From assembly GCA_964635275.1 (NCBI GenBank), contig CAZWPN010000001.1, positions 4,149-68,148 on the forward strand: 64,000 nt of DNA, written 5' to 3'. A program made the translations under genes and the position numbers. Under the pieces are notes generated by a model. The model was not told where the DNA came from. It saw only the letters and a program-made list of their open reading frames with translations, and ran no database searches. This DNA comes from an uncultured Victivallales bacterium. GTDB lineage: Bacteria; Verrucomicrobiota; Kiritimatiellia; UBA8416; CAZWPN01. Shown here piece after piece: positions 30,142 to 64,000 of the stretch; positions within the stretch are counted from its first letter, which is position 1, and every line of letters starts with the position of its first letter.

Positions 30142-30381
30142 TGTCTTTCTCCGCCCGCGTGGTTCGCTGCATGGAGAAACCCGCCTAAATACAGACGGGA
30201 CGACGACGCGGCAGCGAATGGCCCTGGCTCTCTGATGATGCACTCAATAGCATTTACAGAAACAACCCTGTAGGCAACTTGGCACGCCTTGGACCATCGG
30301 AGAGCCAAGCACTCCGAACACTGAACGGTGTTGGCGCAAGATACGGCCCACGATTCCTTGCACAATGAGCAAACCATCCCG

Positions 30382-34146: not shown

Positions 34147-35057
34147 GCGCGAAATCCAGACTTCTTGCCAAAAGACTCGCGTTGTACGCTCTGGCGGCCG
34201 TGGGCTACGCCCTGTGCCTTCCTCTCCTTAGACTGTTGCGTGTGCATTCCGGCCGGGAGCGGTTCAGGATCTTCAACTACCATAGCGTCAGTTCAATGCG
34301 CAAGCATGCCACAACGGTGACTTCGGAAGTATTCGCCAACCACATATCGCTCATCCGAGACAGGGCCACCATCGTAGGCATGGACGATATTCTGGAATCG
34401 GTCAGGGGCGACGCATTGCTGGCGCCAAACGCCGTAGCGATCACCCTCGACGACGGGTACGCGGATAACCTTTACGGCGCACTCCCCGTTTTCATGCGCT
34501 ACAGGGTCCCGGCAGTGTGCTTTGTGACCGTGGCATTCATCGGAACCGACAAACTGCTGCCGCACGACGCCGCCGACACCGTTGAAGCAGCCCGTCTTCT
34601 TTCGTGGGCCGAGGTCCGCAAACTTGAAGACGGCGGTGTGGAGATAGGATCGCACGGACTGACGCACATCCGGCTATCGAAGGCGCCATCCCCCACCGTT
34701 CATACAGAGGAAATACGGAGAAGTTACGACATACTGAGCAGTCGTCTCCACAAACCGCCAAGGTGCATCGCCTTCCCATTCGGACAAAAGGGAGACTACA
34801 CGCCCGAGACGCTTAAAGAGTCGAAAGAAGCAGGTTACCTTTGCGCCTTTTCAGCGCAGTACGGATGGAATTGCGGAAGATCCAACCCATACGAACTCCG
34901 TAGAATCGGCATCGACGGCAGCGACACTCTCTTCACGCTCAGGGCAAAACTGAACGGCGCTCTGGATCTCTTGAGTGTCACGCGGACCAGGCCGGTCCGA
35001 GCCATCATTGCCTGGGTAAACACGTTGACCAAACGGTGCATCAGATGCGAGTACTAA
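34143..35057 (+). CDS. Polysaccharide deacetylase (CE4) family protein; second copy.
   Basis: NAVAITLDDGYADN; ...IGSHGLTHI. The GTG start overlaps the ligase TGA (GTGA). Confidence 0.75.
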   Translation: MSAKSRLLAKRLALYALAAVGYALCLPLLRLLRVHSGRERFRIFNYHSVSSMRKHATTVTSEVFANHISLIRDRATIVGMDDILESVRGDALLAPNAVAITLDDGYADNLYGALPVFMRYRVPAVCFVTVAFIGTDKLLPHDAADTVEAARLLSWAEVRKLEDGGVEIGSHGLTHIRLSKAPSPTVHTEEIRRSYDILSSRLHKPPRCIAFPFGQKGDYTPETLKESKEAGYLCAFSAQYGWNCGRSNPYELRRIGIDGSDTLFTLRAKLNGALDLLSVTRTRPVRAIIAWVNTLTKRCIRCEY

Positions 35058-36172
35058 TGGTTACGGTCGATTTCATCCCGCACAGCGACGGGGTGAGCAC
35101 TCTAAGCTACAACTACGCCAGAAGACTGGCGGAACTCGGACACGAGGTGGAAGTCGTCGGCCCGAAATCCGAAGGACAGGAAGATGCCGACAGCAAAGCG
35201 CCCTACACTATTCGAAGGTTTCCTGGCTACCACCTTGGCCCCCTTCGATTTATCCCATTTGCGGCACACGTTATACGAGCCATTCGAGAGCGGAAACCAG
35301 ACGTACTCATGGCGATGAACATCGGATACGGCGGGATTCTATCCCTGTTTCATCCGACTGCACGGCGCATTCCCGTCATTGTAATGGCCTATGGCTTGGA
35401 GTTCAGGAAGTTCCGGAACAACCCCGTTTTCTCGGCGCTCTACCGTCACATCTACAAGAGGAGCGTCCTCGTCATCGCAGTCAGCAACTACACCAGAAGT
35501 GAACTTCTCGAGCTTGGAGCTCCGGCGGAACGTGTGAAGATGGTCTACCCGGGAACATTCAAGCCGGCCCAGATGCATGAATCCGCCCCGCCGGCGCCCA
35601 GAGCAGGCAAGCCCGTCATCGGCACATGCGGCCGTCTGATACGTCGCAAAGGCCACGATATCGTGATCCGCGCACTTCCAATGGTTATAGCGACTCACCC
35701 CGGAATCGAATACGTTATCGTCGGTAAAGGCCCGGAAGCGGATAACCTCCGCGCTCTGGCCATCTCACTCGGAGTCGAAAAACATGTCACATTCCTCGGG
35801 GAGGTACCAGCCGACGAACTACCGTCATTCCTGAAATCCCTCGATGTGTTTGTCATGCCCAGCAGAAACGACCGAATGACAGGACATGTGGAGGGATTCG
35901 GCATCGTCTATCTGGAGGCTGCCGTATACGGTGTGCCTTCCATCGGCACGACCACCGGCGGAATCCCGGAAGCCATCGTGGATGGTGAGACAGGAATGCT
36001 TGTTCCTGACGAATCGCCAGCCGCCCTGGGGACTGTCCTGTCCGATCTCCTTAAGCGCCCTGCCGAAGTCTGTCGTCTAGGGCAGAACGCCAAACACAGG
36101 GCTGAGACCGAATTCCTGTGGGACCATCAGGTCGATCGCTTTAACACCATGCTCTTGAACGCAGGAAAGTGA
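35045..36172 (+). CDS. GT4-family glycosyltransferase.
   Basis: MRVLMVTVDFIPHSDGVS...VEGFGIVYLEAAVYGVPSIGTTTGG. Confidence 0.8.
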   Translation: MRVLMVTVDFIPHSDGVSTLSYNYARRLAELGHEVEVVGPKSEGQEDADSKAPYTIRRFPGYHLGPLRFIPFAAHVIRAIRERKPDVLMAMNIGYGGILSLFHPTARRIPVIVMAYGLEFRKFRNNPVFSALYRHIYKRSVLVIAVSNYTRSELLELGAPAERVKMVYPGTFKPAQMHESAPPAPRAGKPVIGTCGRLIRRKGHDIVIRALPMVIATHPGIEYVIVGKGPEADNLRALAISLGVEKHVTFLGEVPADELPSFLKSLDVFVMPSRNDRMTGHVEGFGIVYLEAAVYGVPSIGTTTGGIPEAIVDGETGMLVPDESPAALGTVLSDLLKRPAEVCRLGQNAKHRAETEFLWDHQVDRFNTMLLNAGK

Positions 36173-36184
36173 GAGGACTGCCGA

Positions 36185-37030
36185 ATGGAATCCACAGCAA
36201 CACAGCGACAAGACGGAGCTGGTCAGACAGCCATCCCGCGGTTGAAAGTTGCCATTGTCACCAGGACAGGACGGCCATCCGGGGCCAGATTCGCCATGGC
36301 CGTGGGACAAAGTGGACATCAGATCAGCGGCATCATCGCCGAGAAGCGATCCGCCATGCTCTGGCGGGCTATACGCCGCCTCGGGATTGGGGGCTTTCTG
36401 AGGAAATACCCGCATGCCTGGCTTGCAGCACGCATCAGCAATACAATTCAAACCATACTCGGTCGGCGGATCTCAGGAAATAGTAATGTCCTCGCGGCAT
36501 GCCCATCGGCGGCTGATACAGCAAAACGGTTCTCGGCCCCCTATGCGGAGGTCAGCGACTTGAACTCCTCGGATTCCCTCGCGATACTAAAGCGGTGGAA
36601 CCCTGACGTCCTTGTTGTCGCAAATGCTCCGGTACTCAAGGATCATGTGATGGGCACTGCACGACTGGGAGGAATCAATTTCCATTCCGGCCACTTGCCG
36701 GAATACGGCGGAGTGGCCTCCGAATTCTGGGCCATGTTCGATGGAAACACCACAGCCTGGGCCACACTGCACCAAGTGTTACCTACACTGGATTCAGGGG
36801 ACATCCTCGCCGAGGAGCCTGTGCCTATAGATGCATCAGACACGCCGGAAACGCTTCACGAGCGCTGCGTTGCAAGGGGCGTGTCAATGATAGGAGCGGT
36901 TCTGGACACCATGGCATCCGGATCTTGTAGGCCGGTCAGGTCCCCTGGTCCGGCTGTTCTGCGGAAATGGCCGTCGTCGCAGGAGCACAGCGCTCTATTA
37001 CGCAGGCTGCATGCCACCGTCATCACATGA
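36185..37030 (+). CDS. Formyltransferase-family protein; second copy, Formyl_trans_N-like.
   Basis: LKVAIVTRTGRPSG...DVLVVANAPVLKDHVM...GINFHSGHLPEYGG. Confidence 0.6.
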   Translation: MESTATQRQDGAGQTAIPRLKVAIVTRTGRPSGARFAMAVGQSGHQISGIIAEKRSAMLWRAIRRLGIGGFLRKYPHAWLAARISNTIQTILGRRISGNSNVLAACPSAADTAKRFSAPYAEVSDLNSSDSLAILKRWNPDVLVVANAPVLKDHVMGTARLGGINFHSGHLPEYGGVASEFWAMFDGNTTAWATLHQVLPTLDSGDILAEEPVPIDASDTPETLHERCVARGVSMIGAVLDTMASGSCRPVRSPGPAVLRKWPSSQEHSALLRRLHATVIT

Positions 37031-38871: not shown

Positions 38872-40029
38872 TTACATCTCAAGTTGGCCGTATGCCCAGA
38901 CGGCATAGTCCAGCGAATCGCCGTCTCCCGCGTCAGAGGCCTCAAGCACCAGCTCCTTAACCCCGTCAAGCTTCACATCTACCGGTTTCTCTCCGGCCAC
39001 ATAGGACAGGACTCCGCTGTCATAGAGCATCCTCCCATCGCCATAAACAGCAAAACGAACGGTTCCACAGTCTTTTCGTTGCAGCTCCCTTTCGATCGCT
39101 TCGATCTGCTCTTTCTCTCCTTTAAAAGCCGACACCAACACAGTAGCCGTAAACCGCTTGTAACGCCCCGCCAGATCGTAGGTCAGCTTGGACGGAGCAG
39201 GAGCCCAAATGCCACGGACGTACACTTTGCCACCGTTGTAGATCGGCAGCCCTCCCCATCTTGTCTCGTTGACCCTCAAAATGTCCTTCTTGTTGCAGGA
39301 CGACGACACTGGACGCATCTCCTCAAGCACAATTGCCACTTCAGAGCCCGCGCTCTTGTTCGCTTTCAGCACATTGCCATCCTGTTCGGACTCTGCCTTT
39401 CGTTGCGTCAGCCATTCGCGCGCCTCCCTGTTGGCAGGCCACAACTCAAGAGCGCGACGACGGAGATTCAGCGCATCATCCTTTCGACCAGCATCCTCCG
39501 CTATGACCGCATTCCTGACCAACACATCAGAGGCTTCTGATAATGCAATCGCAACAGTGTCGAGCCGCCGCAACAAGTCTTCCGCCTTTGATCTGATCCT
39601 TACGACAGTCCTGTCTGGCGGCGCAGCGAGCAACTCCTCCAACAGATTCCTGAGCCGCTTCAGAGCTTCATCTTTCCGCTCCTGTTGACAGAGTGTTTCT
39701 ACGGTTTCCAATTTGGCCTCATAGAATTCAGGATCAGTATTCAGCGCTCTTGAGTAATTCTCGACAGCTTTGTCGAAATCCCCCATCGTTCGGAACTTCC
39801 TTGCAGTGTCCGCATAGACTTTCGCCTGCATTCGCTTCGCAAGCTTTGCTTTCTGCGCCTCTTCCTCGGCCAGCTTGTTTTCTGCAGCGGCACTGTCGGT
39901 GTCAGCGGGCGAGGCTGCCACAGGTGTGGAAAAGCCAGAGTCTCCCTGCGCGTTTTCCGAAACGGACGAACATCCTCCAAGGGTAGCTGCAGATATTACG
40001 ACCAGACAGCCAGCTATCCACCACCTCAT
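38872..40029 (-). CDS. Lipoprotein with N-terminal TPR-like region and a C-terminal NPCBM-like (carbohydrate-binding) domain.
   Basis: Signal peptide plus lipobox AATLGGCSS. C-terminal ...GDGDSLDYAVWAYGQLEM resembles the NPCBM/NEW2 motif. Confidence 0.45.
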   Translation of the reverse strand: MRWWIAGCLVVISAATLGGCSSVSENAQGDSGFSTPVAASPADTDSAAAENKLAEEEAQKAKLAKRMQAKVYADTARKFRTMGDFDKAVENYSRALNTDPEFYEAKLETVETLCQQERKDEALKRLRNLLEELLAAPPDRTVVRIRSKAEDLLRRLDTVAIALSEASDVLVRNAVIAEDAGRKDDALNLRRRALELWPANREAREWLTQRKAESEQDGNVLKANKSAGSEVAIVLEEMRPVSSSCNKKDILRVNETRWGGLPIYNGGKVYVRGIWAPAPSKLTYDLAGRYKRFTATVLVSAFKGEKEQIEAIERELQRKDCGTVRFAVYGDGRMLYDSGVLSYVAGEKPVDVKLDGVKELVLEASDAGDGDSLDYAVWAYGQLEM

Positions 40030-40293
40030 CTCACGCCCAAGAACCGCAGTGCGTATCCGAATTGCTGACCAGCCATTCAACATGCGAACCTCCATCCTAA
40101 AGCACAACAAACGAGCAAAACTCGGTGTTCTCTATATCCCAATACCCCATCCACTTGCAACAAGAAGTTCGCAACAGGAAGCTCTGCGAAATTGCTCAAA
40201 CTCGGGCAGATCGGTCGTGCGTGCCTGCTACCGGCGCATTTACGCGCTTTCCGCCAGGCGCACACTCGGAGCTTCCGGAGCCGCTGGAGCATT

Positions 40294-51592: not shown

Positions 51593-53428
51593 ATGTATCG
51601 TTGCTTGAATGCCGGAAACGTTGGGGTTTCTCTCAATTGGGAGTCTTGTTTGCCGCTGGCAAGAGCCGCCGGATTCACAGGCTTTGACATTCCAGTGACT
51701 CCGGAAACGGATTGCGGAAAGGTCCGGGATCTGTTGGCTGCCCACAATCTGAGACCCGGCGGACAGCCGCTGCCATTCGATTTCCGCGGAAGCGAAGCCG
51801 CATTCCTCAACGGGCTGAAGACGCTCCGGGCTGTGGCCGAAAAGGCCGCTGGGATCGGCCAGACCCGGTTCTATATCTGGATCTGGCCATATTCGGACAC
51901 ATTGGCGTTCAAGGATAATTTTCGCTTTCACGCCGACCGACTCGGTCAGGCGGCGACAATAATGCGGGATGCCGGTTGCCGGCTGGGCCTGGAATTCCTC
52001 GGCCCGCGGCATTACCGGGAAGGGCACCCTTTCAGCTTTGTCCACACCCTCGGCGGCATGCTGGATCTCGCGGACGCCATCGGGCCCAACGCCGGCCTGT
52101 TGCTCGATTCCTGGCACTGGCACACCTCACTGGGAACCGTTGACGAAATCCGCGCGCTGAAGAACGAGCAGGTCGTCTACGTCCACATCAACGACGCGCC
52201 ACGCGGCATTCCGGTCGAAGATCAGTACGACTACGTTCGCGCCGTCCCCGGGGAAACGGGCGTTCTCAATCTGCCCGGTTTTCTCGACGCGTTGCGCACC
52301 ATCGGCTACGACGGACCAGTCGTCCCGGAGCCGTTCGTTTCCGCACTGTCAGCAATGCAGCCTGAAGCGGCGCTTCGCCGGGTGGCCACGGGGCTGGATC
52401 GCATTTGGGATGTGCGGCCCCGCCCGCCCCTCCCCTCGACGATGAAGGTCTTGGCGACCGGTCGCCGGAAAGCCTGGCTGGTTGATCTGCCCGTGCCACG
52501 TCCGCAGGGCAATGAAGTGGTCGTGAAGCTGCATGCCTGCCCTATCTGCGGCAGCAACTTGGGTGCCTTTCTTGGGGACGGGGAATGGGTCAATACCGGA
52601 CACGAGGGCGCGGGCGAGGTGGTGGCGGTGGCGGAGAGTCAGCGACTGCGTGTTGGCGACCGCGTTGCCTTGGCGCCGCTCAACGCCTGCGGCCGTTGTT
52701 CAGACTGCCTGCGCGGCGACGTCATCTTCTGCAGGAACCGGCCGGCCATTCACGGAACCTTCGCACCGTTCACCCGCGTGGCGGACGTGATGTGCGCCAA
52801 AGTTCCCGATGACCTGGACTATGATCACGCCTCGCTGATGGGCTGTGCGCTGGGGCCTGCCTACGAGGCCATCAAACGGCTGGGGGTTGGCGGTCTCGAC
52901 ACGCTGGTGGTCAGCGGCCTGGGGCCAGTAGGACTCGGCGCATCGGCACTAGCCTCAGCGATCGGCACACGCGTGGTTGCACTGGATCCCGAACCATTCC
53001 GTCGGGAACTGGCGGCAAGGATCGGCGCGGCAGTAACGCTGGACCCGTCGGCTCCCGACATCAGGGAAGCGTTGCTCCGCGCGGTGGGGGCCGATGGCAT
53101 CCGCAAGTCCATCGACTGTTCCGGCAAGGAATCAGCCGAACGCCTGTTGATCGATCTGGCTTCCATCCGGGGAGCGGTCGCATTCGTCGGCGAGAACGGG
53201 GGCACAATTCCCCTTTCCCCAAGCCGCGATATGATCCGCAAAGGGCTGACGCTTCTTGGCTGCTGGCATATGAACATGCTCGACGCTCCCGACCTGATCG
53301 AATTTCTTCGGCGTCATCCGGCCAAAGCCGGGTTGTTGATCTCGCATCGCTTTGCCTTCGACCACGCGCAGGAGGCATTCGAGGTATTCGCCTCGCGCCA
53401 GACCGCCAAGGTAATCCTGCATCCATGA
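51593..53428 (+). CDS. Fusion: xylose-isomerase-like TIM-barrel (sugar phosphate isomerase/epimerase) domain plus Zn-dependent medium-chain alcohol/polyol dehydrogenase (MDR) domain.
   Basis: N-terminus ...LGLEFLGPRHYREGHPF...LLDSWHWH (TIM-barrel metal-site style). C-terminus ACPICGSNLGAFLG...GHEGAGEVV...CGRCSDCLRGDVIFC (catalytic plus structural Zn sites) and GLGPVGLGA Rossmann. Confidence 0.6.
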   Translation: MYRCLNAGNVGVSLNWESCLPLARAAGFTGFDIPVTPETDCGKVRDLLAAHNLRPGGQPLPFDFRGSEAAFLNGLKTLRAVAEKAAGIGQTRFYIWIWPYSDTLAFKDNFRFHADRLGQAATIMRDAGCRLGLEFLGPRHYREGHPFSFVHTLGGMLDLADAIGPNAGLLLDSWHWHTSLGTVDEIRALKNEQVVYVHINDAPRGIPVEDQYDYVRAVPGETGVLNLPGFLDALRTIGYDGPVVPEPFVSALSAMQPEAALRRVATGLDRIWDVRPRPPLPSTMKVLATGRRKAWLVDLPVPRPQGNEVVVKLHACPICGSNLGAFLGDGEWVNTGHEGAGEVVAVAESQRLRVGDRVALAPLNACGRCSDCLRGDVIFCRNRPAIHGTFAPFTRVADVMCAKVPDDLDYDHASLMGCALGPAYEAIKRLGVGGLDTLVVSGLGPVGLGASALASAIGTRVVALDPEPFRRELAARIGAAVTLDPSAPDIREALLRAVGADGIRKSIDCSGKESAERLLIDLASIRGAVAFVGENGGTIPLSPSRDMIRKGLTLLGCWHMNMLDAPDLIEFLRRHPAKAGLLISHRFAFDHAQEAFEVFASRQTAKVILHP

Positions 53429-53468: not shown

Positions 53469-55889
53469 ATGAAAAATGCCTTGCTAGTTCCCGATCCCGA
53501 GCGACTCCGCCGCAAACTGACGAATCCCCCACCCTTACTGGCGAAACTCCAACGGCGTTTCCAGGAACGGCTTGCCGCGGATCCTGAGTTCCGCCGGCAT
53601 CACATCTTCCTGCCCGCGCTGCTCGGGGATCCGGCCGCCATTGCCGAAGCGAGGGAGCAGATCGTCACGCTTGCGGCAGACCCCGTCGAGTTGGCCACCA
53701 CCCGGCCCGGCGCCCGGACGCCGCCGCAGAACAGTCTCGATCATCATATCTGGTGCATCGCCCCGCGGGCCATGCGCATCGCCGCCTATTTCACGTGGCT
53801 TGACCTTCACGGCGTCTGGACGCCCGCGGAGCGTTGCACGATCGGCGCCGGGTTGCTGGACTTCTTCGACAACCATGTGATCCCGGTCTTGCGCGCGCGC
53901 ACCCCCGGCGGACACAATCAGCAGTTCTCGATGACATTCTGCAGTACCGTCGTTGGACATGCCTTTGCGGATGTGGACGGGGTTGCCGAACGCGCCTGCC
54001 GGTTGCGAAACTGGGCGTTCCCGAAGTTAACGCAGACGCTTGGACTCCTTCCCGCGAGCGGCTACTCCGGCGAAGGGACGACCTACCAGTCCGACGTGGT
54101 CGCGGCTTTGACCCTGTGGGCAGGCGTCTTTCTCAAACAGATCGGCGAACACGACGTCTGGAACCGCCGCTGGACGCCCAACGGATGGCGTATGGCCGAC
54201 ACGCTGCGGATGGAGGCACTGATGTGCAGTTGCGGCGGATGGCTGCCGCCGTGGGATCAGTACGGCTGGCAGCGGGTTCACAACTTGGCCGCACGCACGC
54301 TCTGGGCGGAGCTGTCCGGCGATGCCGGAATGCTGCGCATCGCCGAGGACGCCTGGGACGAGCCGCACCACCTGGCCTGGCGGCCCGACGACCGGCTGTG
54401 GACGCTGATCTACTGGCCGGAGGAGGAGGGGGAACGGTGGTCTGTGGTCGGTGATCGGTTACCGGTAACGGAGCGTCACGTCTCAGCATCGCCTGGACAA
54501 GGGCATAGTCAGCCGTCCGACAACCGAAAACCCACAACCGACAACCGGACACCGAACACCGTTCTTTCCGGCTGGAGTGTTCCGGTGGTCGGCGCCGCAG
54601 TCGAGCACCTGCCGCGGCGGCTGCGCGTCATGGCGGCCTGGGATGAATGCTCCGGCAGCCTCCAGGGCCTCGGCCGCGCCCAAGTCAACCCGAACCACCT
54701 GATGATCGACCTGGCCGGCGAACCGGTCACAGGCGACGGCTGGGATCTTGTCGGCCTTCGGCTGACCTCTGATGAGGCGCGCGAACGAACGAGGCACGCT
54801 CTCCCGCCGGTCCAGATGGAAATGATAGCAAGGCAGTACGGCAGCTTCGAGCGATGGGTGCGCGCGAGTGAGAACGGATTTCTGGGCGCATCCTGCGCGA
54901 TCATCGTGGACGGCTGGGACAGCTACTTCCCCCGCAAGGCCCGGCAGGGACAACTGGTGTTCGAGCGGCGGACACCGGAACGGCACACGTTCGCCGGCGA
55001 GGCGGCCCCGTACTATCAGCCGGCCTTTGACGTGACGCGGATGCGGCGTACCGTTTCGATGGGCGCTTCAGGCGTCACCTGGATCGTGGACGACATCCGG
55101 TCCGGGTCTCCGCACATGTTCACATGGCGGATGTGGCTGCGTGGCGGCTTGCGCCAGGCCGGCCCGCAGGCCCGGCGGCTCGATCTTCAATCCGGAGTCG
55201 CACTGGCTCTCGGCTGGCGTGTTGAGACGGAGGGAGAGGCCCGGCCTGTTGATGTTCGCGCCGAAAAATGCGAAGCCTATCCGCTGGCGCCGGACGATCC
55301 TCGGACCCACTGGCCCAGCAAGAATACCACGCGCTGTGAAGTGAACGCGACAGGACGGCGGGTCCGCTTTGTAACCTGCCTGGTGCCGGAGGGGGTCGAC
55401 GGATTGCAGGTGCGGCAGATGGCACCCGAGACCTGGGAGGCGGTCTGGGCCGGCGGAGCCGACACCTTCGTCCTGCCACCCGAGGTGGAAGCTACGCCGG
55501 ATCCCGCTCCGATCGTCGGCGCCCAGATTGCGGCTGAAGAAACCGTCTGCGATCTCGACGAGGCGCCCTATGGGCTGATCGCCGAACCCGATGCGGTGCT
55601 GCTCGCGGCGCTGGACAGCCCGCCGGTTGAGGCCTTTCGCCGCACCGGGGCGGCCATGCTGACCCTGACGATTCGAGGATGCGCAGACGCCATGCCCAAG
55701 ATCATGGCCCTGCTGGAAGATGCCCGCCAGAACTACACGGTCCACTCCGTGGCCGCCTGGTGCCTGGGGCGCGCGCAATACCGGCCCGCGCTTGAGCTGC
55801 TGCGAAGGGTCTCCCACATCCCCGAGGTCAACACGGCCCTCCGTGCCGGTTGGGCGGTGGAGCGGATGGAAGCAAGTAAGAGGAGGTAG
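53469..55889 (+). CDS. Heparinase II/III-like polysaccharide lyase-family protein (tentative).
   Basis: 806 aa; N-terminal alpha-helical toroid-like region followed by a beta-rich C-terminus. Assigned by overall architecture and composition only. Confidence 0.3.
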   Translation: MKNALLVPDPERLRRKLTNPPPLLAKLQRRFQERLAADPEFRRHHIFLPALLGDPAAIAEAREQIVTLAADPVELATTRPGARTPPQNSLDHHIWCIAPRAMRIAAYFTWLDLHGVWTPAERCTIGAGLLDFFDNHVIPVLRARTPGGHNQQFSMTFCSTVVGHAFADVDGVAERACRLRNWAFPKLTQTLGLLPASGYSGEGTTYQSDVVAALTLWAGVFLKQIGEHDVWNRRWTPNGWRMADTLRMEALMCSCGGWLPPWDQYGWQRVHNLAARTLWAELSGDAGMLRIAEDAWDEPHHLAWRPDDRLWTLIYWPEEEGERWSVVGDRLPVTERHVSASPGQGHSQPSDNRKPTTDNRTPNTVLSGWSVPVVGAAVEHLPRRLRVMAAWDECSGSLQGLGRAQVNPNHLMIDLAGEPVTGDGWDLVGLRLTSDEARERTRHALPPVQMEMIARQYGSFERWVRASENGFLGASCAIIVDGWDSYFPRKARQGQLVFERRTPERHTFAGEAAPYYQPAFDVTRMRRTVSMGASGVTWIVDDIRSGSPHMFTWRMWLRGGLRQAGPQARRLDLQSGVALALGWRVETEGEARPVDVRAEKCEAYPLAPDDPRTHWPSKNTTRCEVNATGRRVRFVTCLVPEGVDGLQVRQMAPETWEAVWAGGADTFVLPPEVEATPDPAPIVGAQIAAEETVCDLDEAPYGLIAEPDAVLLAALDSPPVEAFRRTGAAMLTLTIRGCADAMPKIMALLEDARQNYTVHSVAAWCLGRAQYRPALELLRRVSHIPEVNTALRAGWAVERMEASKRR

Positions 55890-55895
55890 GGAACC

Positions 55896-57632
55896 ATGGA
55901 TCTGCGAAAGCATGCTCGTCTATCGCTCAAATTCCTGGAAACGGCCACCAACCCGGCCATGCAGGATCTGCCGTATTTCTGGATCGACTTTGTGCGGAAT
56001 CCGCCGGAATTTGTTCATTGCATGGTGTTTGACGATGTCGAAAACTTCGGGCGCTGGCTCTACGCCATCAAGGCGGCGCAGGTCGTCAGCGGGACGGATG
56101 GGGCCGAAGGCACCCGCCGCGCGATGATTCGCGAGATTGATCGCCGTCGGAACGGCCCGTATGGTCTCGTCTACACTTCGGCCTACAGCGAGAAGTTCTG
56201 CCGCGGCTTCCTTGGCCATCACGCCTGGCTCTGGGGCAACCGCTCCGTCCTCCAAGGATGGGTCCTGTGTTACCGCTTCGCCAGCGATGCCCGCGAGCGC
56301 GAGGAGATGAGGCAGCGCATCGACACCATGGTCTCCGGTATGAACGAATTCGTCGTCCGGATCGGCGACTGCGTCTATTTCCCATCCCTCACGCCCACCC
56401 GTGACTTCCGCAAGCGCGACGACTACATCGAGCCCCGGGAGGCTGCAGGAAAACACTGGAACGCCATGTACGGCTCGGCGGAGCCGGACGACCCGCGCAT
56501 GCTGCCGCACATCAGCGACAGCGTCGGCGGAATGATCGCGCCTCTTGTTCAGTGGTACGAAGCGACCGGGAATCAGACCGCCCTGGATCTAGCGGTCGGC
56601 ATCAGCCGCACCATGGTGAAGCATCACCACACCAAGGGAGACCTGACGAATCCAATCGGCTGCTTCTCCAACAATCACGGCGTGCTCAACGCCGTGGCGG
56701 GCGTGCTGGCCGCCAACCGACACGTGCCCGACCGCCACCACCGGATCTGGGCCAAGACGCTCTGGGAGTACTACGTGGCCCGCTGTGCCTCCTCGTTCGG
56801 CTGGGCGCCGGAGAATGAGCGGGTGGACTACACGCGCCCGCTGGAGCGGCCGTCCTGTGAAGGCTGCGCCACCGTTGACATGGTTCGCGCCGGCGTCGAG
56901 CTGGCGCGCGCCGGCTTTTCCGAGTCGTGGGACATGGTGGAGCGTTTCACTCGCAACTACATGACCCAGGCACAAATCCAAGATGACGTGAAACCGTTCT
57001 CCCTGGAAGGCGTGCCACTCAACGATGTCAGCCGTGGCGGCATCGAATGCGAACCTGAAGCCTTGCGCGATCGCCGCGATATCTACACCCGCTGCATCGG
57101 CGCTTTGGCCGGCTGGGGCGCTCCGAACGACGTGCTGGACCCGCACGGCCGCTTCGCGATGTGCATCCAGAACTGCTGCAGCGGTCACTTGCCTCTGGGA
57201 ATGCTCGACGTGTGGAGCCAAACGGTCGTGCGCGACTCCGAGGGTGTCCGGATCAATCTGCTTCTGGACCATGAAAGCCCGGACGGTTCGGTAAAGGATC
57301 ATCAACCCACCGACGGCCGACTGGACATCCGGATGAAACGGGCCGGCACCGTGCGTGTGCGCATTCCCGACTGGGTTCCGGATGCCAAGGTGGCGATCCG
57401 TGTGGATGGCCGGGGCGTTCCGGCGGTATGGGAAGACAGGCCCAGTCGCTACATTCGCGTGAGCGACGTGGCCGCTGGAAGTACGGTTGCGGTGAACTAT
57501 CCGTTGCGAGCGCAGACAATGACGGAGCGACTTGGCGGCGAACTCTACACCACGCAATGGAAGGGCGATACGGTGGTTGGAATCGAGCCGCCGGGGCGGT
57601 TCATTCCAATCTTCAATGGACGCAAGGACTGA
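55896..57632 (+). CDS. GH127/DUF1680-like six-hairpin glycosidase (tentative).
   Basis: 578 aa; Cys-containing CEGCATVDM region and helical-repeat N-terminus. Low-certainty architecture-based call. Confidence 0.3.
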   Translation: MDLRKHARLSLKFLETATNPAMQDLPYFWIDFVRNPPEFVHCMVFDDVENFGRWLYAIKAAQVVSGTDGAEGTRRAMIREIDRRRNGPYGLVYTSAYSEKFCRGFLGHHAWLWGNRSVLQGWVLCYRFASDAREREEMRQRIDTMVSGMNEFVVRIGDCVYFPSLTPTRDFRKRDDYIEPREAAGKHWNAMYGSAEPDDPRMLPHISDSVGGMIAPLVQWYEATGNQTALDLAVGISRTMVKHHHTKGDLTNPIGCFSNNHGVLNAVAGVLAANRHVPDRHHRIWAKTLWEYYVARCASSFGWAPENERVDYTRPLERPSCEGCATVDMVRAGVELARAGFSESWDMVERFTRNYMTQAQIQDDVKPFSLEGVPLNDVSRGGIECEPEALRDRRDIYTRCIGALAGWGAPNDVLDPHGRFAMCIQNCCSGHLPLGMLDVWSQTVVRDSEGVRINLLLDHESPDGSVKDHQPTDGRLDIRMKRAGTVRVRIPDWVPDAKVAIRVDGRGVPAVWEDRPSRYIRVSDVAAGSTVAVNYPLRAQTMTERLGGELYTTQWKGDTVVGIEPPGRFIPIFNGRKD

Positions 57633-57661: not shown

Positions 57662-60600
57662 CTATGGCTTCAGCAGCTTGGCGGCGGCCTCCGCCACGGG
57701 CCCCTTCGTTGACGTTGCTGCATTCTTGAGGTAGAGCTTCCCCGCGCCGCCGGCCTGAAGAATCGTCGCCTTGGCCGCCTCGAATTCCACCTTGTTGGTC
57801 GAGCCAAGGCTGTTGATCGCCGCCGGCAGGAGCGCGACCTCGGCTGGCAGGAGCGCCGTGCTCAACGCGTTGGTGGAGATAAGCTGGCGAGTGAAGCCCG
57901 GCCCGCTCCAGAGAAGCGCAATGTTGTTCTGTCCGTCATTGCCGAACTGCAAGTCCACGCGGACCTGGTGCGTTCCGCTGCTCAGAACGATCGCGTTGGT
58001 CCAACTCTGCCCGTCGCCCGGAACCTGCTGGAGCGGGAGGGGCTTGGCGTCCATCCACAGTTGGACCTGGGCGTGTGCCCGCTGCACATACATGACATAC
58101 GCGCCAGGCTGGTTCACGAGCAGCGTTCCGGTCCACCGAGCGGAGATGTCGCGCTGTTGGTTGTTAGGCGCCGGGATGCGGCTATTCTCTATATTCACGG
58201 CAGCTTCAATCCGCGCAGCCAGTTGTCCATCAAACAGTTGTCCGGTGTAGTAGCGGCCCCTCAAGCCCATCACGGGCGCTACAAACGGAGCCCCGAGTGC
58301 CGCCGCGCGTGCGACAACGGCTGCATTGGGCGAAGCGCCGGCCGCTTCCACATAGGCTTTCAACTGTTCATATCCCTTCGGGTCCTTCGTGAGTTTGTTG
58401 AACTCTTCGGCGCTGCCGCCGCAGGCACGATCCAGAACCATGCAGAGCATGGCAGCTTCCGGAATCATCCGGAACGAGTTGTCGTTGCGAACCGCTTCAT
58501 AGAGTGGCACCGCGAGATCCGGCGGGATAAATCCGCCCAGCTCGCGGAGGCTGTCGAAGAGGTCCGGCACAATTGCGGAATCCGGAGCCTTTCGGATGCG
58601 TTCCACCAGCAGGGCCGCGGCGAGGGCGTCGTACTGCTCGGCCAGGATCGCGGCGGCGGCCTTGGCGACCGGATCGGGCTTGTACCGGATCGCGTTACGA
58701 AGGAAGTGAAGGCCCGCATCACCGGACTGGAGCAGAGTCGCCTTGGCCGCGCGGACCTCCGCCCAGTTCGTGGAGGTAAGGCTGTTGATGGCGCCGGGGA
58801 GTTTGGCGAGTTCGCTCTGCCAGAGCGGGGTGCGCAGAACGCTCGGGGGGATGATCTGTTTGCCGATGCCGGGGCCGTTCCAGTAGAGCGTGAGCTGGTT
58901 CCAATCGCCGCCGAGCTGGGCATCCAGACGTATCCGGTGCGTGCCTTTCGCGAGGGTGATCGTGTTGGTATAGCTGTTCTGATCACCCGGAACCTGCTGG
59001 AAGGACAGATTCCTTTCGTCAATCCGCAACTGTGCTTGAGCCTGCGCGCGTTCCACCCAGATGACATAGTCGCCCGGCTGGGTGACCAGCAAGGTTCCCG
59101 ACCATCGCGCGGAAAGATCCCGCTGCCAGTTGGCGGGAACCGGGTATTGCTGGTTCCGGAAACTGACCGAGGCATCGGCCCGTTCCGTTGCCAGTTCGTC
59201 CCGCTGCTGGCCGAGGTAGTAGCTGCCGCGCAATCCCGGCACGGGCGCCACAAAGGAGGGCCCGAATCGGCATGCGCTCATGACCACGGCGTCGTTGCTG
59301 GATGCAAGCGCCTGTGTGACATAGCCCTGCAGTTGTTCATAGGCCTTGGGATCCTTAACGAGCCCGTTGAAGCTTTCCGCATTTCCGCCGCAGGCCCGGT
59401 CCAGGACGATGCAGAGCATGGCGGCTTCCGGGATCATCCGGACATCCTTGTCCGCGCGCACCGCTTCGAGCAGGGCAGGCAGGCTGTCCGCCAGAATGAA
59501 CGCGGCCAGATCGCGGAGGTTCTCCAGCAGGTCGGGTACGATGGCGGAAGCCGGCGTCTTGCGGATACGTTCGACGAGCAAGGGCGCGGCCGAGGCATCG
59601 TACTGCTCGGCCAGGATCGCGGCGGCGGCCTTGGCGACTGCATCGGGCTTATGCCGGATCGCGTTACGAAGGAAGTGAAGGCCCGCATCGCCGGACTGGA
59701 GCAGAGTCGCCTTGGCCGCGCGGACCTCCGCCCAGTTCGTGGAGGTAAGGCTGTTGATGGCGCCGGGGAGTTTGGCGAGTTCGCTCTGCCAGAGCGGGGT
59801 GCGCAGAACGCTCGGGGGGATGATCTGTTTGCCGATGCCGGGGCCGTTCCAGTAGAGCGTGAGCTGGTTCCAATCGCCGCCGAGCTGGGCATCCAGACGT
59901 ATCCGGTGCGTGCCTTTCGCGAGGGTGATCGTGTTGGTATAGCTGTTCTGATCACCCGGAACCTGCTGGAAGGACAGATTCCTTTCGTCAATCCGCAACT
60001 GTGCTTGAGCCTGCGCGCGTTCCACCCAGATGACATAGTCGCCCGGCTGGGTGACCAGCAAGGTTCCCGACCATCGCGCGGAAAGATCCCGCTGCCAGTT
60101 GGCGGGAACCGGGTATTGCTGGTTCCGGAAACTGACCGAGGCATCGGCCCGTTCCGTTGCCAGTTCGTCCCGCTGCTGGCCGAGGTAGTAGCTGCCGCGC
60201 AATCCCGGCACGGGCGCCACAAAGGAGGGCCCGAATCGGCATGCGCTCATGACCACGGCGTCGTTGCTGGATGCAAGCGCCTGTGTGACATAGCCCTGCA
60301 GTTGTTCATAGGCCTTGGGATCCTTAACGAGCCCGTTGAAGCTTTCCGCATTTCCGCCGCAGGTCCGGTCCAGGACGAAGCACAGCATGGCGGCCTCGGG
60401 GATCATCCGGACGTCCTTGTCGGCGCGGATGGCTTCCAGCATGAAAGGCAGGCTGTCCGCTGGCACGAACACGGCCAGATCGCGCAGGTTATCAAGCAGA
60501 TCGGGCACGATGGCGGAAGCCGGCGTCTTGCGGATGCGTTCGACCAGCAGGGCCGCGGCCGGAGCGTCGTTTTGTTGCGACAGAATCGCGGCAGCCGCCT

Positions 60601-63600
60601 TGGCCGCTGGATCGGGCTTGTACCGGATCGCGTTGCGGAGGAAGGTCATGCCCGCATCACCGGCCTGAAGCAGCACTGCCTTGGCCGTACGGACCTCCGC
60701 CCAATTCGTCGAGGTGAGATTGTTGATCGCGCCGGGCAGTCTGGCCAGTGCGTCCGGCCACAGCGGAGTGCGCAGCGCCTCCGGCCCGATGATCCGCCGG
60801 CCAAATCCAGGCCCGGCCCAGTCTAGTTGCCCGCCAATATCCCAATCCCAACCGTCTCTGCCCTGTTGCAGCGTCACGCGAATCCGGTGGACTCCTGCGG
60901 CCACGGCGACCTTGTTGGTCCTGCGATTCCATTCGCCCTGGAACTGAACGGGCACGCCATCGATCGAGATGCCTTGCCATGCCCCGGAGTTGAGGTCGAA
61001 GGTATAGTCGCCTGCCCGCTCCACGTTCAGCCAGCCGTCCCACTGCACGGAAACATTCTTCATCTGGTTGCTCGGCCACGGATACGAACGATCCGGGATC
61101 GAAGCGACGGGATCAAGGCGATCGAGTGTCAACTCCTCGAAATACGCTCCGAGATAGTAGCGGCCGCGGAGTCCCGAGGCGGGCGCCACGAACGGCGCAC
61201 CGAACTGTGCGGCGCGCATGACGACGGCATCGTTGGTTGTGGCGCAGGCCTGTTCGACGTAGGACTTCAGTTGCTCGTGCGCCTTCGGGTCCTTCGCCAG
61301 CTTGTTGAACTCCTCAACCTTGCCGCTGCAGAGCCGGTCCAGGATGATGCAGAGAATGCTGGCCTCGGGGATCATCCGGCTATCCTTGTCCGCGCCGATG
61401 GCCTCGCAGAGGGATGGAACAAGATCCGGCGGGATGTTTGCGGCCAGGCTGCGCAGGTTCTCCAGGAGATCGGGGACGATGGCGGAGTCCGGGGTTTTGC
61501 GGATGCGCTCGATCAGCAGGACCGCAGTCGGGGCATCGTTACGTTCGGTCAGGATGGCGGCGGCTGTTTTTGCCATGGAGTCCGGTTTGTGGCGGATGGC
61601 GTTGCGCAAGAAGATGGGCGCGAACTCCTGCGCCTGTGCCAGTGTGGCGGCGGCGGCCCGCATGGTGGCCAGGTTCGTGGAGGCCAGGTTGTCGATGGCG
61701 GGGGGCAGGGTCAGCAGTGCACTGCGCCAGATGGGGGTGCGGAAGATATTCCCGGCGATAATCTGTTTCGCGACGTTGGTCCAGCTCCATGACATCTCGA
61801 AGACGGCGCCTTCCGCCTTCATGCGGTGCCAGCCGGGTTCCAGGGTGACCGGGGCTCCTGACCGTTCATTCCAGTCCCAGTTGTTGACGACGGGCCGATC
61901 GTCGATGAACAGGGCGGAGTTCCCTCCGGAACGTGAATAGAACGTGTAGGCGGCGGCCGTGTCGATGCGCAGGAAACCGGTCCAGCGCAGAGAGCTGTCA
62001 CCACGCCGGTTTTCCGGAAGCGGGTTCGGATTGGACCGGTCGTTCAGCTCGAACCTTCCCTCGAGCCGCTCCAGGGCGAGTTCGTCGAACTGCTGGCCAT
62101 AGAAGTACTGTCCGCGGAGGCCGCCGGTGAGGTATGGGGTAAACGGGATTCCGTATTCGCAGGCATTCACGACGACCGTGTCTTTGGCGGAGATCGTGGC
62201 CTGTTGGACGTAGCGCTGGAGTTGGTCGTAGCCCTTCGGGTCCTGGACGGCCTGGTTGAACCGGGTCTTGTCGTTGCCGTATACGTCGTTGAGGAGGGCA
62301 CAAAGCGCCGAGGCATGCGGGAGCATGGAGGCATCGGCGTCCTGCAGCATGGTCTTGTAGAGATACTGGATCTGGTCGGGCGCGAGGATCGGTGCCATGT
62401 TGCGCAACGCGACGGTCAACTCGGGAATTACCGGCGACGCGGGGTACTTCTCGATGCGCTCGATCAGGATGGCGGGCGCCCGAGTGTCGCGGCGGGCGAC
62501 CAGCCATTCCGCGGCGCGCGCGGCGACGGGGTCGGACTCGTTCCGGAGCGCATCGCGCAGGTAGATGTCGCCGGCCGTGAATCCCCATGCGAGCCGGGCT
62601 TTGGCTGCGCGCGCGGTGATCCAGTTCGTGGCGGTGAGATCCCGGATGGCCTGGCGTAGCGGAAGCACGGCATCCTTCCAGGGTGGAGAGCGAAGCACGC
62701 CGCCGTCCACGAGCCGCCGTGGCATATCCGGTCCGCTCATGTCAACTCGGATGCCGTATCCATGCTGTACCTGTACGAGGTCCGCGCTGATGGGCACCCA
62801 TCCGGGCTTAAGTTCGACGGTCATATTCGTTCCCGAACCTACAACTCCGGCCAGGATCTGCGTTCCGACCGATACCGAGCCACCGTCGTCCGCGCTTGCG
62901 TAGAATGTATACGTTCCGGCCTTCGGGATATCGAGGAACCCGGTCCACCGCGCGGAGAAGTTTTCGCTCGGCCCGCCCGGAAACGGCGGCGTGTTATAGC
63001 CCGAGATGGCGATTTGCGATTCGGGGCGCTCGTTGGTCAGGCTTCCGAATTGGGTGTCGGCGTAGTAGCGGGCGACGGCGGTGCTGAATGCGCCCGCCAG
63101 CGACCCTCCGTGTCCGCAAACCCAGGCCACAACCTGCGTATCCGTCGAAAGCATCGCGTTCTCTAGGTAGGTTCTGAGCGTCTCGAATGCGTTTGTGGCG
63201 CCGATTAGCTGGTTGTATGGCTCGACCGCCCCTCGGCATCTCTTCTCAAAAGCCGTGACGAGCACACCGGCCGACTCACGACGGACGAAATTTGTGTCGC
63301 AAAGAATGGTCTCATGCAGTGTAACAAATGCGTTGGTTTGGACATTGTCGATCCTGACATTCATGCCTTGAGCCATCAGCTCCAACAAGGGAATGAACTC
63401 GCGTCTTGCCAGTTGCACGGCAAAGAGGGGATAGGCCTTAGCGTCGGCCTGCTCGATAAGCAATCGGGTCGCTATCAAGGCGGCGGCATCCTTGTCTTCC
63501 CGCACGACCTTGCGCAAGAAGATCCGCCCTGTTTCGCCGGCATTGCTCAACTTCTCCTGTGCCACCTGAATGTAGCTTTGATTCTCGGAAGACAGGTACC

Positions 63601-64000
63601 TGACAGACAACCGGAGGTCCACCGCTTCCGCGCGCTCATCTGTCAGCCGGAGCATGATGTCGTACAGGGCCTTTTGCTGCTCCGGATCCTTGCGGGAATC
63701 CTGAAAGGTCTTGCAAAGCCGGATGGCTTCTTGGAATTGGGCGTCCTGTTCCAGTTCGTAAATCCTCTGCAAGTCCAGCGCAAAAGAGGCGTCGAACGCG
63801 ACCCGGACAACCTCCGACGTATCGGTAACGGAACCGCCTACCGGCATCACGACTGTTGCGTCTGCCGCAATTTCGTTGGTTTTTGCAGCAGGCGTGTTCG
63901 TTGCGGATTCAACGACTGTGGGTGGATTCGTTGCAGCAACGATCGGGAGCGGTGCCTGATGTTCGACCGATGGCAATGGCTGCTTCGCCGCCACTTCCGT
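57662..64000 (-). CDS. Giant (>2100 aa) repetitive protein made of at least six tandem modules of a HEAT/ARM-like helical segment plus a PA14 carbohydrate-binding domain. Partial: the N-terminus lies beyond the right edge.
   Basis: PA14 signatures recur roughly every 320 aa (FSARWTGFLDIPKAGTYTFYASADDG; LSARWSGTLLVTQPGDYVIWV; ISARWTGTLLVNQPGAYVMYV). HEAT-like blocks recur between them (FLRNAIRHKPD..AKAAAAIL...LLVERIRKTP.SAIVPDLL.NLR). The reading frame is open to the window edge. Confidence 0.75.
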   Translation of the reverse strand, partial: TEVAAKQPLPSVEHQAPLPIVAATNPPTVVESATNTPAAKTNEIAADATVVMPVGGSVTDTSEVVRVAFDASFALDLQRIYELEQDAQFQEAIRLCKTFQDSRKDPEQQKALYDIMLRLTDERAEAVDLRLSVRYLSSENQSYIQVAQEKLSNAGETGRIFLRKVVREDKDAAALIATRLLIEQADAKAYPLFAVQLARREFIPLLELMAQGMNVRIDNVQTNAFVTLHETILCDTNFVRRESAGVLVTAFEKRCRGAVEPYNQLIGATNAFETLRTYLENAMLSTDTQVVAWVCGHGGSLAGAFSTAVARYYADTQFGSLTNERPESQIAISGYNTPPFPGGPSENFSARWTGFLDIPKAGTYTFYASADDGGSVSVGTQILAGVVGSGTNMTVELKPGWVPISADLVQVQHGYGIRVDMSGPDMPRRLVDGGVLRSPPWKDAVLPLRQAIRDLTATNWITARAAKARLAWGFTAGDIYLRDALRNESDPVAARAAEWLVARRDTRAPAILIERIEKYPASPVIPELTVALRNMAPILAPDQIQYLYKTMLQDADASMLPHASALCALLNDVYGNDKTRFNQAVQDPKGYDQLQRYVQQATISAKDTVVVNACEYGIPFTPYLTGGLRGQYFYGQQFDELALERLEGRFELNDRSNPNPLPENRRGDSSLRWTGFLRIDTAAAYTFYSRSGGNSALFIDDRPVVNNWDWNERSGAPVTLEPGWHRMKAEGAVFEMSWSWTNVAKQIIAGNIFRTPIWRSALLTLPPAIDNLASTNLATMRAAAATLAQAQEFAPIFLRNAIRHKPDSMAKTAAAILTERNDAPTAVLLIERIRKTPDSAIVPDLLENLRSLAANIPPDLVPSLCEAIGADKDSRMIPEASILCIILDRLCSGKVEEFNKLAKDPKAHEQLKSYVEQACATTNDAVVMRAAQFGAPFVAPASGLRGRYYLGAYFEELTLDRLDPVASIPDRSYPWPSNQMKNVSVQWDGWLNVERAGDYTFDLNSGAWQGISIDGVPVQFQGEWNRRTNKVAVAAGVHRIRVTLQQGRDGWDWDIGGQLDWAGPGFGRRIIGPEALRTPLWPDALARLPGAINNLTSTNWAEVRTAKAVLLQAGDAGMTFLRNAIRYKPDPAAKAAAAILSQQNDAPAAALLVERIRKTPASAIVPDLLDNLRDLAVFVPADSLPFMLEAIRADKDVRMIPEAAMLCFVLDRTCGGNAESFNGLVKDPKAYEQLQGYVTQALASSNDAVVMSACRFGPSFVAPVPGLRGSYYLGQQRDELATERADASVSFRNQQYPVPANWQRDLSARWSGTLLVTQPGDYVIWVERAQAQAQLRIDERNLSFQQVPGDQNSYTNTITLAKGTHRIRLDAQLGGDWNQLTLYWNGPGIGKQIIPPSVLRTPLWQSELAKLPGAINSLTSTNWAEVRAAKATLLQSGDAGLHFLRNAIRHKPDAVAKAAAAILAEQYDASAAPLLVERIRKTPASAIVPDLLENLRDLAAFILADSLPALLEAVRADKDVRMIPEAAMLCIVLDRACGGNAESFNGLVKDPKAYEQLQGYVTQALASSNDAVVMSACRFGPSFVAPVPGLRGSYYLGQQRDELATERADASVSFRNQQYPVPANWQRDLSARWSGTLLVTQPGDYVIWVERAQAQAQLRIDERNLSFQQVPGDQNSYTNTITLAKGTHRIRLDAQLGGDWNQLTLYWNGPGIGKQIIPPSVLRTPLWQSELAKLPGAINSLTSTNWAEVRAAKATLLQSGDAGLHFLRNAIRYKPDPVAKAAAAILAEQYDALAAALLVERIRKAPDSAIVPDLFDSLRELGGFIPPDLAVPLYEAVRNDNSFRMIPEAAMLCMVLDRACGGSAEEFNKLTKDPKGYEQLKAYVEAAGASPNAAVVARAAALGAPFVAPVMGLRGRYYTGQLFDGQLAARIEAAVNIENSRIPAPNNQQRDISARWTGTLLVNQPGAYVMYVQRAHAQVQLWMDAKPLPLQQVPGDGQSWTNAIVLSSGTHQVRVDLQFGNDGQNNIALLWSGPGFTRQLISTNALSTALLPAEVALLPAAINSLGSTNKVEFEAAKATILQAGGAGKLYLKNAATSTKGPVAEAAAKLLKP
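58622..60390. repeat. Near-perfect in-frame tandem direct repeat, 2 x 969 bp (about 700 bp identical, flanks >95%), inside the giant PA14 gene. More diverged copies at the same period extend to ~62.6 kb.
   Basis: Identical ORF translations are reported at 58465..59253 and 59434..60222, at 58719..58904 and 59664..59873, and at 59019..59273 and 59988..60242, all offset by 969 nt. Direct sequence comparison confirms this. Confidence 0.9.

Follow-up and report, generated by a model that had tools for sequence, protein, structure and literature searches.

A 64,000-nucleotide stretch of DNA from an uncultured Victivallales bacterium (assembly GCA_964635275.1, contig CAZWPN010000001.1, positions 4,149 to 68,148; hereafter the window, meaning the whole stretch) ends inside a giant repetitive gene, and the question raised by this locus is what such a protein does: is it a multivalent lectin that captures glycans, or does its length matter more than its binding? 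The encoded protein is built from six head-to-tail units, each consisting of a helical domain (H) followed by a PA14 domain (PA14-1 to PA14-6, in units 0 to 5). We give about even chances to the reading that it is a lipid-anchored envelope or surface stalk of variable length, located outside the cytoplasm. The first-pass annotation, made from the letters alone, had proposed a surface glycan-capturing scaffold or adhesin: a predicted lipobox supports a membrane-tethered protein, and the glycan-capturing part of this proposal was weakened by the loss of binding sites and the lack of conserved neighbours. The host is probably an uncultured member of the Kiritimatiellia, in the Planctomycetes-Verrucomicrobia-Chlamydiae (PVC) superphylum. 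Both Kiritimatiellia and Phycisphaerae rank among the major anaerobic degraders of recalcitrant polysaccharide; to our knowledge, little is understood of how they retain and import polymers, and we know of no SusCD-type system in the PVC superphylum.

The open reading frame lies on the minus strand and runs from a stop codon at 57662-57664 to the window end, through 2,112 codons without an internal stop. It had been described as still open at the edge, which it is: an NCBI-derived protein of 2,139 amino acids (aa) (P0001, encoded on an 84.6-kb contig) is 100% identical to the window frame over its residues 28-2139, and the other 27 codons, at the N-terminal end of the gene, lie beyond the window. 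The DNA of the gene has a period of 969 nt (323 aa) and the units are 317-324 aa in size. Pfam detected PA14 (PF07691) in six stretches (164.2 bits versus a cut-off of 24, E 2.3e-48), far more than chance would give, and custom repeat hidden Markov models (HMMs) gave the domain order H-P-H-P-H-P-H-P-H-P-H-P-H, with seven helical-profile matches. The proposed six-fold iteration of modules of about 320 aa was borne out by these three results, and the PA14 assignment held both in the Pfam search and in a fold test, where a beta-sandwich was predicted. The units are free of linkers, each H domain ending exactly where the following PA14 starts. The modules are less uniform than had been supposed: six HEAT-like/PA14 units are present, but unit 0 is atypical, with an extra N-terminal helical cap and 22-25% identity to the remaining units, and a truncated seventh solenoid after PA14-6 forms the C-terminus. 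No C-terminal sorting signal is visible in the giant protein. Two long frames lie antisense over the gene (952 aa at 57968-60826 and 321 aa at 60827-61792, both on the plus strand), and antisense frames of the homologous genes in three other loci (L001-L003) match them by BLAST; high G+C content and the conservation of the sense codons most likely account for these frames, which would then not be genes.

The N-terminus of P0001 (MLIIRCIGGMVLSASLLAAG|CGRK) reads as a signal peptide ending in a lipobox (LLAAG|C), with Cys21 as the predicted lipidated residue. The lipobox was read by pattern, as the motif [LVI][ASTVI][GAS]C after a signal peptide, and equivalent motifs were seen in homologues (P0002, P0005-P0008, P0012 and the proteins of loci L002 and L003). 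A crude regular expression, applied to complete N-termini only, matched 24 of the 40 multi-unit family members and 48 of the 88 single-unit ones. The predicted lipobox supports an extracytoplasmic, membrane-tethered protein. A Cys-x6-Cys pair, considered as a disulfide and a further sign of extracytoplasmic location, was present in only 76 of 250 helical domains and was dropped for this reason.

Structures were predicted with AlphaFold2 for one unit (residues 1103-1425, ten-unit alignment; predicted local distance difference test (pLDDT) 88.1, predicted template modelling score (pTM) 0.77) and for two units (646 aa, six-row alignment; pLDDT 84.3, pTM 0.72). The one-unit model consists of twelve helices and then a beta-sandwich, and the two-unit model has an ordered PA14-to-H junction. 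In these models the H domain is a 12-helix HEAT/ARM-like alpha-solenoid of stacked antiparallel helix pairs, and the helical part of the proposed module was thus confirmed at the level of predicted fold. Because both models are confident as whole bodies, they suggest that the chain of units is semi-rigid rather than a set of beads on a flexible string. At the sequence level, HEAT_2 (PF13646) remains below the gathering score in the window protein (16 bits versus 27.7; relatives 25.7-27.5 bits), and the helical domain has no significant relative in the PDB and no NCBIfam family. Foldseek against the PDB returned single-domain matches only (query-normalised TM-score <=0.20), and no solved structure joins both domains. 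A solved 682-aa sulfatase (PDB 9s8a_A) has a C-terminal segment that resembles the end of the giant-protein PA14s (…LKWEGPGLPKQEIP), which points to PA14-like modules being attached to sulfatases as well.

The window protein is no orphan. Word-indexed searching was nearly blind here: the whole protein returned itself and one true homologue, and the helical profile one fragment; the Ala-rich sequence seems to saturate the word index. An exhaustive HMM search with the helical-domain profile recovered 321 cluster representatives at E <=1e-3, of which 177 reached E <=1e-10, so that the proposed search for homologues and copy-number variation gave at least 321 clusters, with 1-9 units per protein. 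Further loci came from a single-protein locus scan (L002) and a metagenome scan (at least L003 and L004). PA14 counts and domain tallies were taken from the best 150 of the 321 clusters, in which the number of PA14 domains per member was 0 (45 members), 1 (59), 2 (18), 3 (7), 4 (11), 5 (4), 6 (3), 7 (1), 8 (1) or 9 (1). Six units are likewise present in P0006 (MFZ4395916.1, named 'Kiritimatiellia bacterium', 60% identical to the window protein) and in P0002 (L001), five in the L002 and L003 proteins (five Pfam PA14 stretches in the latter) and four in P0012. Two members were checked for source names: P0006 and P0102 ('Phycisphaerae bacterium'). The ten clusters examined contain 1-3 sequences apiece, and none of these was traced to an isolate in culture.

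The commonest form of the family is about 450 aa long and carries a lipobox, a Pro-rich tether, a helical cap, one solenoid and one PA14. The window protein has the same marks: a lipobox, a Pro-rich tether and a helical cap come first, followed by matches to the helical profile (A2) and by PA14. Comparison of the predicted proteins shows the single-unit lipoprotein of about 450 aa as the ancestral form, from which the giant forms arose by tandem duplication of the whole unit. The domain that follows the solenoid is variable: nine of ten PA14-less members scanned have Laminin_G_3 (concanavalin A (ConA)-like) instead (P0058, P0074, P0077, P0085, P0094, P0095, P0103, P0140 and P0143), and P0054 has a terpene-cyclase-like (squalene-hopene-cyclase-like) toroid fused to its helical domain in place of PA14. 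P0043 (2,961 aa) contains about 21 partial helical repeats and no PA14. Because Laminin_G_3 replaces PA14 after the H domain in some members, the H domain fits a putative scaffold that presents an exchangeable binding domain. No described family of iterated HEAT and PA14 modules had been recognised, and this was borne out: the HEAT–PA14 unit has no Pfam or NCBIfam family and no PDB entry with both domains, and its architecture is undescribed in the literature searched. The domains themselves are known, and what is undescribed in these libraries and the literature searched is their iteration as a unit in a lipoprotein, together with the family.

The sugar-binding site of these PA14 domains has been largely lost in the giant protein. 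In the closest solved PA14s, an Asp-cis-Asp pair (DcisD, on beta5) and a Tyr/Asn of loop CBL2 hold the calcium that contacts the ligand, and PA14B of Clostridium thermocellum RsgI3, without DcisD, has no calcium and cannot bind pectin alone (PMC6852018). At the aligned site, PA14-1 keeps DD and has L-V-Q in loop 2, with the Tyr lost. The Asp-Asp position of PA14-2 to PA14-6 reads GG, GA, QA, QA and HA, with no Tyr and no Asn/Gln in the loop, and the Tyr is absent from all six copies. A calcium-lectin-type PA14 carries Asp-cis-Asp plus the loop-2 Tyr and Asn/Gln; five of the six copies have neither Asp-cis-Asp nor Tyr-x-Asn/Gln and PA14-1 lacks the Tyr, which contradicts a set of six lectin modules. 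In P0006 the Asp-Asp pair is absent from all six PA14 copies. Across the family, 50 of 59 single-unit PA14s carry the pair, as do 26 of 49 first and 27 of 49 last copies but only 12 of 82 internal ones, and about half of the single-unit PA14s also keep the full calcium–sugar signature. Because the pair is rare in internal copies and lost in most window copies, the canonical sugar site has decayed as the units were amplified; this loss in most PA14 copies argues against a six-valent canonical lectin.

The arrays also differ in unit number and composition between close relatives. Window units 0, 1 and 2 are 39%, 70% and 84% identical to their positional counterparts in P0006, and units 3-5 are closer to one another (62-92%) than to theirs. 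A perfect 673-bp direct repeat links units 3 and 4 (Table), and the DNA adjoining its copies is about 82% identical. The diverged halves of these two units have 34 synonymous and 27 non-synonymous codon differences; the rough dN/dS of about 0.3 suggests that both copies are under purifying selection, and they look functional. Over the tether and unit 0 the L003 protein matches P0006 at 96-97% identity, yet it has one unit fewer: it has no close counterpart of P0006 H2/PA14-3, and its PA14-2 is replaced (45% identical to that of P0006, between 93%-identical flanks). P0002 and P0007 show no such mosaic, with 79-94% identity spread uniformly over all domains. Comparison of these sequences shows that remodelling of the arrays is ongoing: whole units are gained or lost, cassettes are replaced, and unequal recombination or gene conversion takes place.

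The neighbour protein encoded at window positions 55896-57632 is identical in four contigs from other assemblies. Three of the four were read (L005, L006 and L007, from JGI 3300045131, SRR12261225 and SRR35365923); they end 1.0-1.1 kb into the 3' part of the giant gene, where they break at the edge of the 673-bp repeat. Because an identical neighbour protein is found on contigs from three samples, the organism recurs across samples; the repeat array breaks these assemblies. The repeats are real in nature, and the exact count of six in the assembly is provisional because of the perfect 673-bp repeat and the three contigs that break at its edge.

In the favoured reading, an N-terminal lipid anchor and a Pro/Thr/Ala-rich tether of about 70 residues would hold the six head-to-tail units to the membrane. 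The amplified units would mainly extend, scaffold or set the length of a stalk projecting from the membrane. Canonical calcium-dependent glycan binding, if any, would be left to PA14-1, the copy nearest the membrane; the remaining PA14s would either use other surfaces for binding or not bind. Such a protein could have a putative adhesin-like role, in which the number of units would determine how far from a polymeric partner the cell, or an envelope component, is held. Both a periplasm-facing and an exterior-facing location are allowed by this proposal, and surface placement is putative.

Several points weigh against it. PA14 domains can bind ligands without a DcisD site, and the internal copies may still be lectins. 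The sole copy with an Asp-Asp pair is the one nearest the membrane, which is the wrong end for an adhesin of the 'extender plus distal binding tip' type. The predicted lipobox lies outside the window and is borrowed from the database protein, whose 2,112 residues in common with the window are identical. The predicted rigidity has pTM as its single measure, and the model alignments are shallow (6-10 rows) and made up entirely of paralogous units. With a perfect 673-bp repeat inside the array, the count of six units may be an assembly error. Localisation, ligand and shape are all predicted.

Among other explanations, the multivalent glycan-capture scaffold or adhesin, in which six lectin PA14s would hold polysaccharide at the surface for the glycoside hydrolases encoded nearby, is the one closest to the first-pass annotation, and we regard it as unlikely. 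Its appeal lies in the PA14 fold, which is closest to carbohydrate-binding PA14s (RsgI sensors, RTX-adhesin PA14 and Flo/Epa/Cea adhesins), in the single-unit relatives that mostly keep the Asp-Asp pair and in the family variants that exchange PA14 for a ConA-like domain. Carbohydrate-active enzyme (CAZyme)-like genes are present near the window, L002 and L015 genes, and the Kiritimatiellia are polysaccharide degraders. It is opposed by the five of six PA14s without the calcium–sugar residues, by P0006 with no Asp-Asp pair at all, by the RsgI3 precedent and by the neighbouring genes described below, which are convergent, include one firm glycoside hydrolase and are not conserved over four loci. 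A second idea starts from the single-unit members: the protein would be the outer-membrane-side partner of a PVC-specific trans-envelope machine (giant TPR, ExbB/ExbD, DUF4159), with the unit number setting its reach. A single-unit member lies directly downstream, on the same strand, of TPR (2,697 aa)–ExbB–ExbD–ExbD–DUF4159 in L012 (1-7842) and of TPR (2,916 aa)–DUF4159 in L013 (1-7879), and directly downstream of a 1,143-aa TPR protein in L008-L010 (L008 4419-7850); in L011, a 33%-identical member has DUF4159, TPR and an ECF (extracytoplasmic function) sigma factor within 5 kb. The contexts in L014 and L015 differ, however, and no TPR, ExbBD or DUF4159 neighbours were found on the downstream side of the window gene, the side from which this locus is seen, or in L001, L002 and L003. 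The syntenic loci also encode proteins 60-64% identical to P0047, and their synteny may only reflect shared ancestry. We consider this idea improbable. Its most developed form is given a slimmer chance still: the family would be a length-tunable, lipid-anchored arm of an energised TPR–ExbB/ExbD–DUF4159 apparatus that captures or handles polymers at the surface, and the multi-unit Kiritimatiellia forms its free-standing derivatives, diversified by recombination. The TPR–ExbB/ExbD–DUF4159–HEAT–PA14 set is a possible undescribed envelope gene cluster in Phycisphaerae-like genomes.

The remodelling of the arrays could also be read as the mark of a polymorphic recognition or decoy protein at the surface, with recombination-diversified PA14 cassettes serving in protein–protein or cell–cell recognition or as phage or predator targets. 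The mosaic identity (gain or loss of a whole unit, and a single replaced PA14 cassette, at 45%, whose flanks are 93-96% identical), the recent conversion or duplication inside the gene that is marked by the 673-bp repeat, and the loss of the canonical sugar site all point this way. So does a precedent: the PA14 domain of myxobacterial TraA, a cell-surface PA14-like protein, reportedly serves contact-dependent outer-membrane exchange with recognition specificity, and not glycan capture. TraA is said to have one PA14, Cys-rich repeats and a MYXO-CTERM tag, whereas the giant protein has neither the repeats nor a sorting tag of this type; moreover, the P0002/P0007 pair is uniform over all domains, and the diverged parts of units 3 and 4 look shaped by purifying rather than positive selection. 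The probability of this explanation is low. Low, too, is that of a real architecture with an artefactual count, the true gene being longer or shorter than assembled. The perfect repeat one unit apart would allow it, as would the three contigs that all stop at the repeat edge; against this, P0006 likewise counts six, its units 3-5 being diverged, the 4-9 units of other relatives are clearly distinct from one another, and the differently flanked repeat copies make the path through the array resolvable. The length-variable, lipid-anchored stalk is the reading retained here.

Set beside known systems, the protein has partial likenesses only. Clostridial RsgI proteins with PA14 dyads (6QE7, 6QDI) have an anti-sigma domain, a transmembrane helix and two adjacent PA14s, have no solenoid and belong to Firmicutes; the giant protein instead has a lipobox and solenoids alternating with six PA14s, and neither Pfam nor NCBIfam found an RsgI_N-type domain in it. 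RTX/Lap adhesins (MpIBP 5J6Y, 6X95; Marinobacter Lap 6M8M) are exported by type I secretion through C-terminal RTX, with an Ig-like extender and one PA14 near the tip whose calcium–sugar site is intact; none of these features is seen in the giant protein, in which no HemolysinCabind or Ig-like domain was detected (Pfam, E up to 0.1). With the A-domains of fungal Flo/Epa/Cea (PA14/GLEYA), in which the DcisD site was defined, it shares the PA14 fold, and PA14-1 passes the GLEYA cut-off (30.4 bits versus 26.2); unlike it, these proteins are eukaryotic and glycosylphosphatidylinositol-anchored, with a Ser/Thr-rich stalk and a single N-terminal PA14 with intact DcisD-Asn. Known HEAT/ARM scaffolds (API5, TOG, PBS-lyase HEAT-like, alphaRep) are mostly cytoplasmic and protein-binding, and are not known to recur in tandem with lectin-like domains within a lipoprotein, unlike the giant protein, whose HEAT score is below the Pfam cut-off. 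The surface glycan-binding proteins of Bacteroidota are likewise lipid-anchored and multi-domain, with beta-sandwich modules, and lie near glycoside hydrolase genes, but this is a functional analogy only: they are linked to SusC/SusD, carry Ig-like or carbohydrate-binding-module-like domains and come from another phylum, whereas the giant-protein locus has no conserved neighbours. The SusC/SusD pair that marks such a protein in a polysaccharide utilization locus, and any SusC/SusD or TonB-dependent receptor family, were absent from the window genes scanned.

The comparison defines a PVC-restricted family of predicted envelope lipoproteins in which the HEAT–PA14 unit is amplified from one to nine copies and is still recombining. 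It offers a natural series in which the effects of repeat number, binding-site loss and cassette exchange on a bacterial surface protein can be followed, and it cautions against equating 'PA14' with 'lectin', given that most copies in the giant protein have lost the site of the best-studied sugar-binding PA14s. If the TPR–ExbB/ExbD–DUF4159 arm is real, a superphylum with no known SusCD-type systems would have a new, energised machine at the cell surface. The giant protein itself belongs to a known kind, that of giant modular envelope or surface proteins of bacteria, and is a moderately interesting lead whose function is only proposed. The coordinates of its features are collected in the Table.

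Table. Features of the giant gene in window coordinates, with residue numbers of P0001.
Feature	Position	Strand	Remarks
Coding sequence of the giant lipoprotein (predicted), residues 28-2139	57662..64000	-	Open reading frame and identity with P0001
Pro/Thr/Ala-rich tether after the predicted lipidated Cys, residues 28-95	63797..64000	-	Sequence; similar tethers in homologues
N-terminal helical cap, residues 96-143	63653..63796	-	Common to single-unit family members
Unit 0: H0 (residues 144-333) and PA14-1 (333-462)	62696..63652	-	Sole PA14 with the Asp-Asp pair
Unit 1: H1 and PA14-2, residues 463-779	61745..62695	-	Positional match to P0006 unit 1, 70%
Unit 2: H2 and PA14-3, residues 780-1102	60776..61744	-	Positional match to P0006 unit 2, 84%
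Unit 3: H3 and PA14-4, residues 1103-1425	59807..60775	-	Unit modelled with AlphaFold2
Unit 4: H4 and PA14-5, residues 1426-1748	58838..59806	-	Protein 92% identical to unit 3
Unit 5: H5 and PA14-6, residues 1749-2072	57866..58837	-	
Truncated seventh solenoid, residues 2073-2139	57665..57865	-	About the first third of an H domain
Perfect 673-bp direct repeat, copy 1	59691..60363		Mid-H3 via PA14-4 into the start of H4; lag 969
Perfect 673-bp direct repeat, copy 2	58722..59394		One unit nearer the 3' end of the gene; lag 969; contigs L005-L007 break at its edge

Four genes, with gpsA upstream of them, are convergent with the giant gene, which is not co-transcribed with them because of this orientation. 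They had been taken for four polysaccharide-degrading enzymes; the convergent arrangement stands, as does one firm assignment, a GH63/MGH1-like hydrolase (E 1e-30). The others are less clear-cut: a gene at 51593-53428 (plus strand) encodes, in 611 aa, a xylose-isomerase-like TIM barrel (AP_endonuc_2) joined to a zinc alcohol dehydrogenase (tdh/IolM-like), a fusion likewise called as one gene in L005; next to it, at 53469-55889 (plus strand), lies an 806-aa protein that matched nothing in Pfam, NCBIfam or the PDB sequences and that is conserved in L005 and L006 beside identical neighbours; and the gene that follows is GH127-like at a sub-threshold score (23.3 bits versus a cut-off of 24.9). Two neighbours of no assigned function have no sequence relatives in the PDB. 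The neighbours of the multi-unit genes in L001, L002 and L003 are unrelated to those of the window, and an all-against-all BLAST of the neighbours in the four loci found no conserved partner beyond a common GFO/IDH/MocA oxidoreductase at 27% identity. With convergent genes, one firm glycoside hydrolase and no gene common to the three other multi-unit loci, the tie to a glycan-degradation operon is weak.

In L001, a 307-aa retron-type reverse transcriptase (17189-18112, plus strand; PADLOC RT_XIII, E 1e-80) is encoded directly downstream of the six-unit P0002, and a 40-nt imperfect tandem pair lies before it in the intergenic region (16769-16864). No msr/msd was matched by Rfam at this locus, and no repeat joins the reverse transcriptase to the giant gene. 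This neighbour prompted the idea that the giant gene is the target of a diversity-generating retroelement; it was rejected, there being no template/variable repeat and no reverse transcriptase in the window, and the L001 enzyme being of the retron type.

Rfam had no match in the window. Its remainder is ordinary chromosome and includes a large O-antigen/exopolysaccharide gene cluster, nusA-infB-truB-ribF and a BamD-like gene, which indicate a diderm host. A glycan-biosynthesis cluster of about 35 kb contains many glycosyltransferases (GT) of families GT1, GT2, GT4 and GT9, Wzm/Wzt (11938-14167) and a Wzy_C–TPR protein (32218-34146). Within it, two sets of polysaccharide deacetylase and formyltransferase-like genes lie in opposite orientation (28286-30243, minus strand; 33891-37030, plus strand). 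Beside a GT4 (WecA/MraY-like) gene, a 412-aa TPR protein with a C-terminal NPCBM/NEW2 glycan-binding domain is encoded at 38872-40110 (minus strand).

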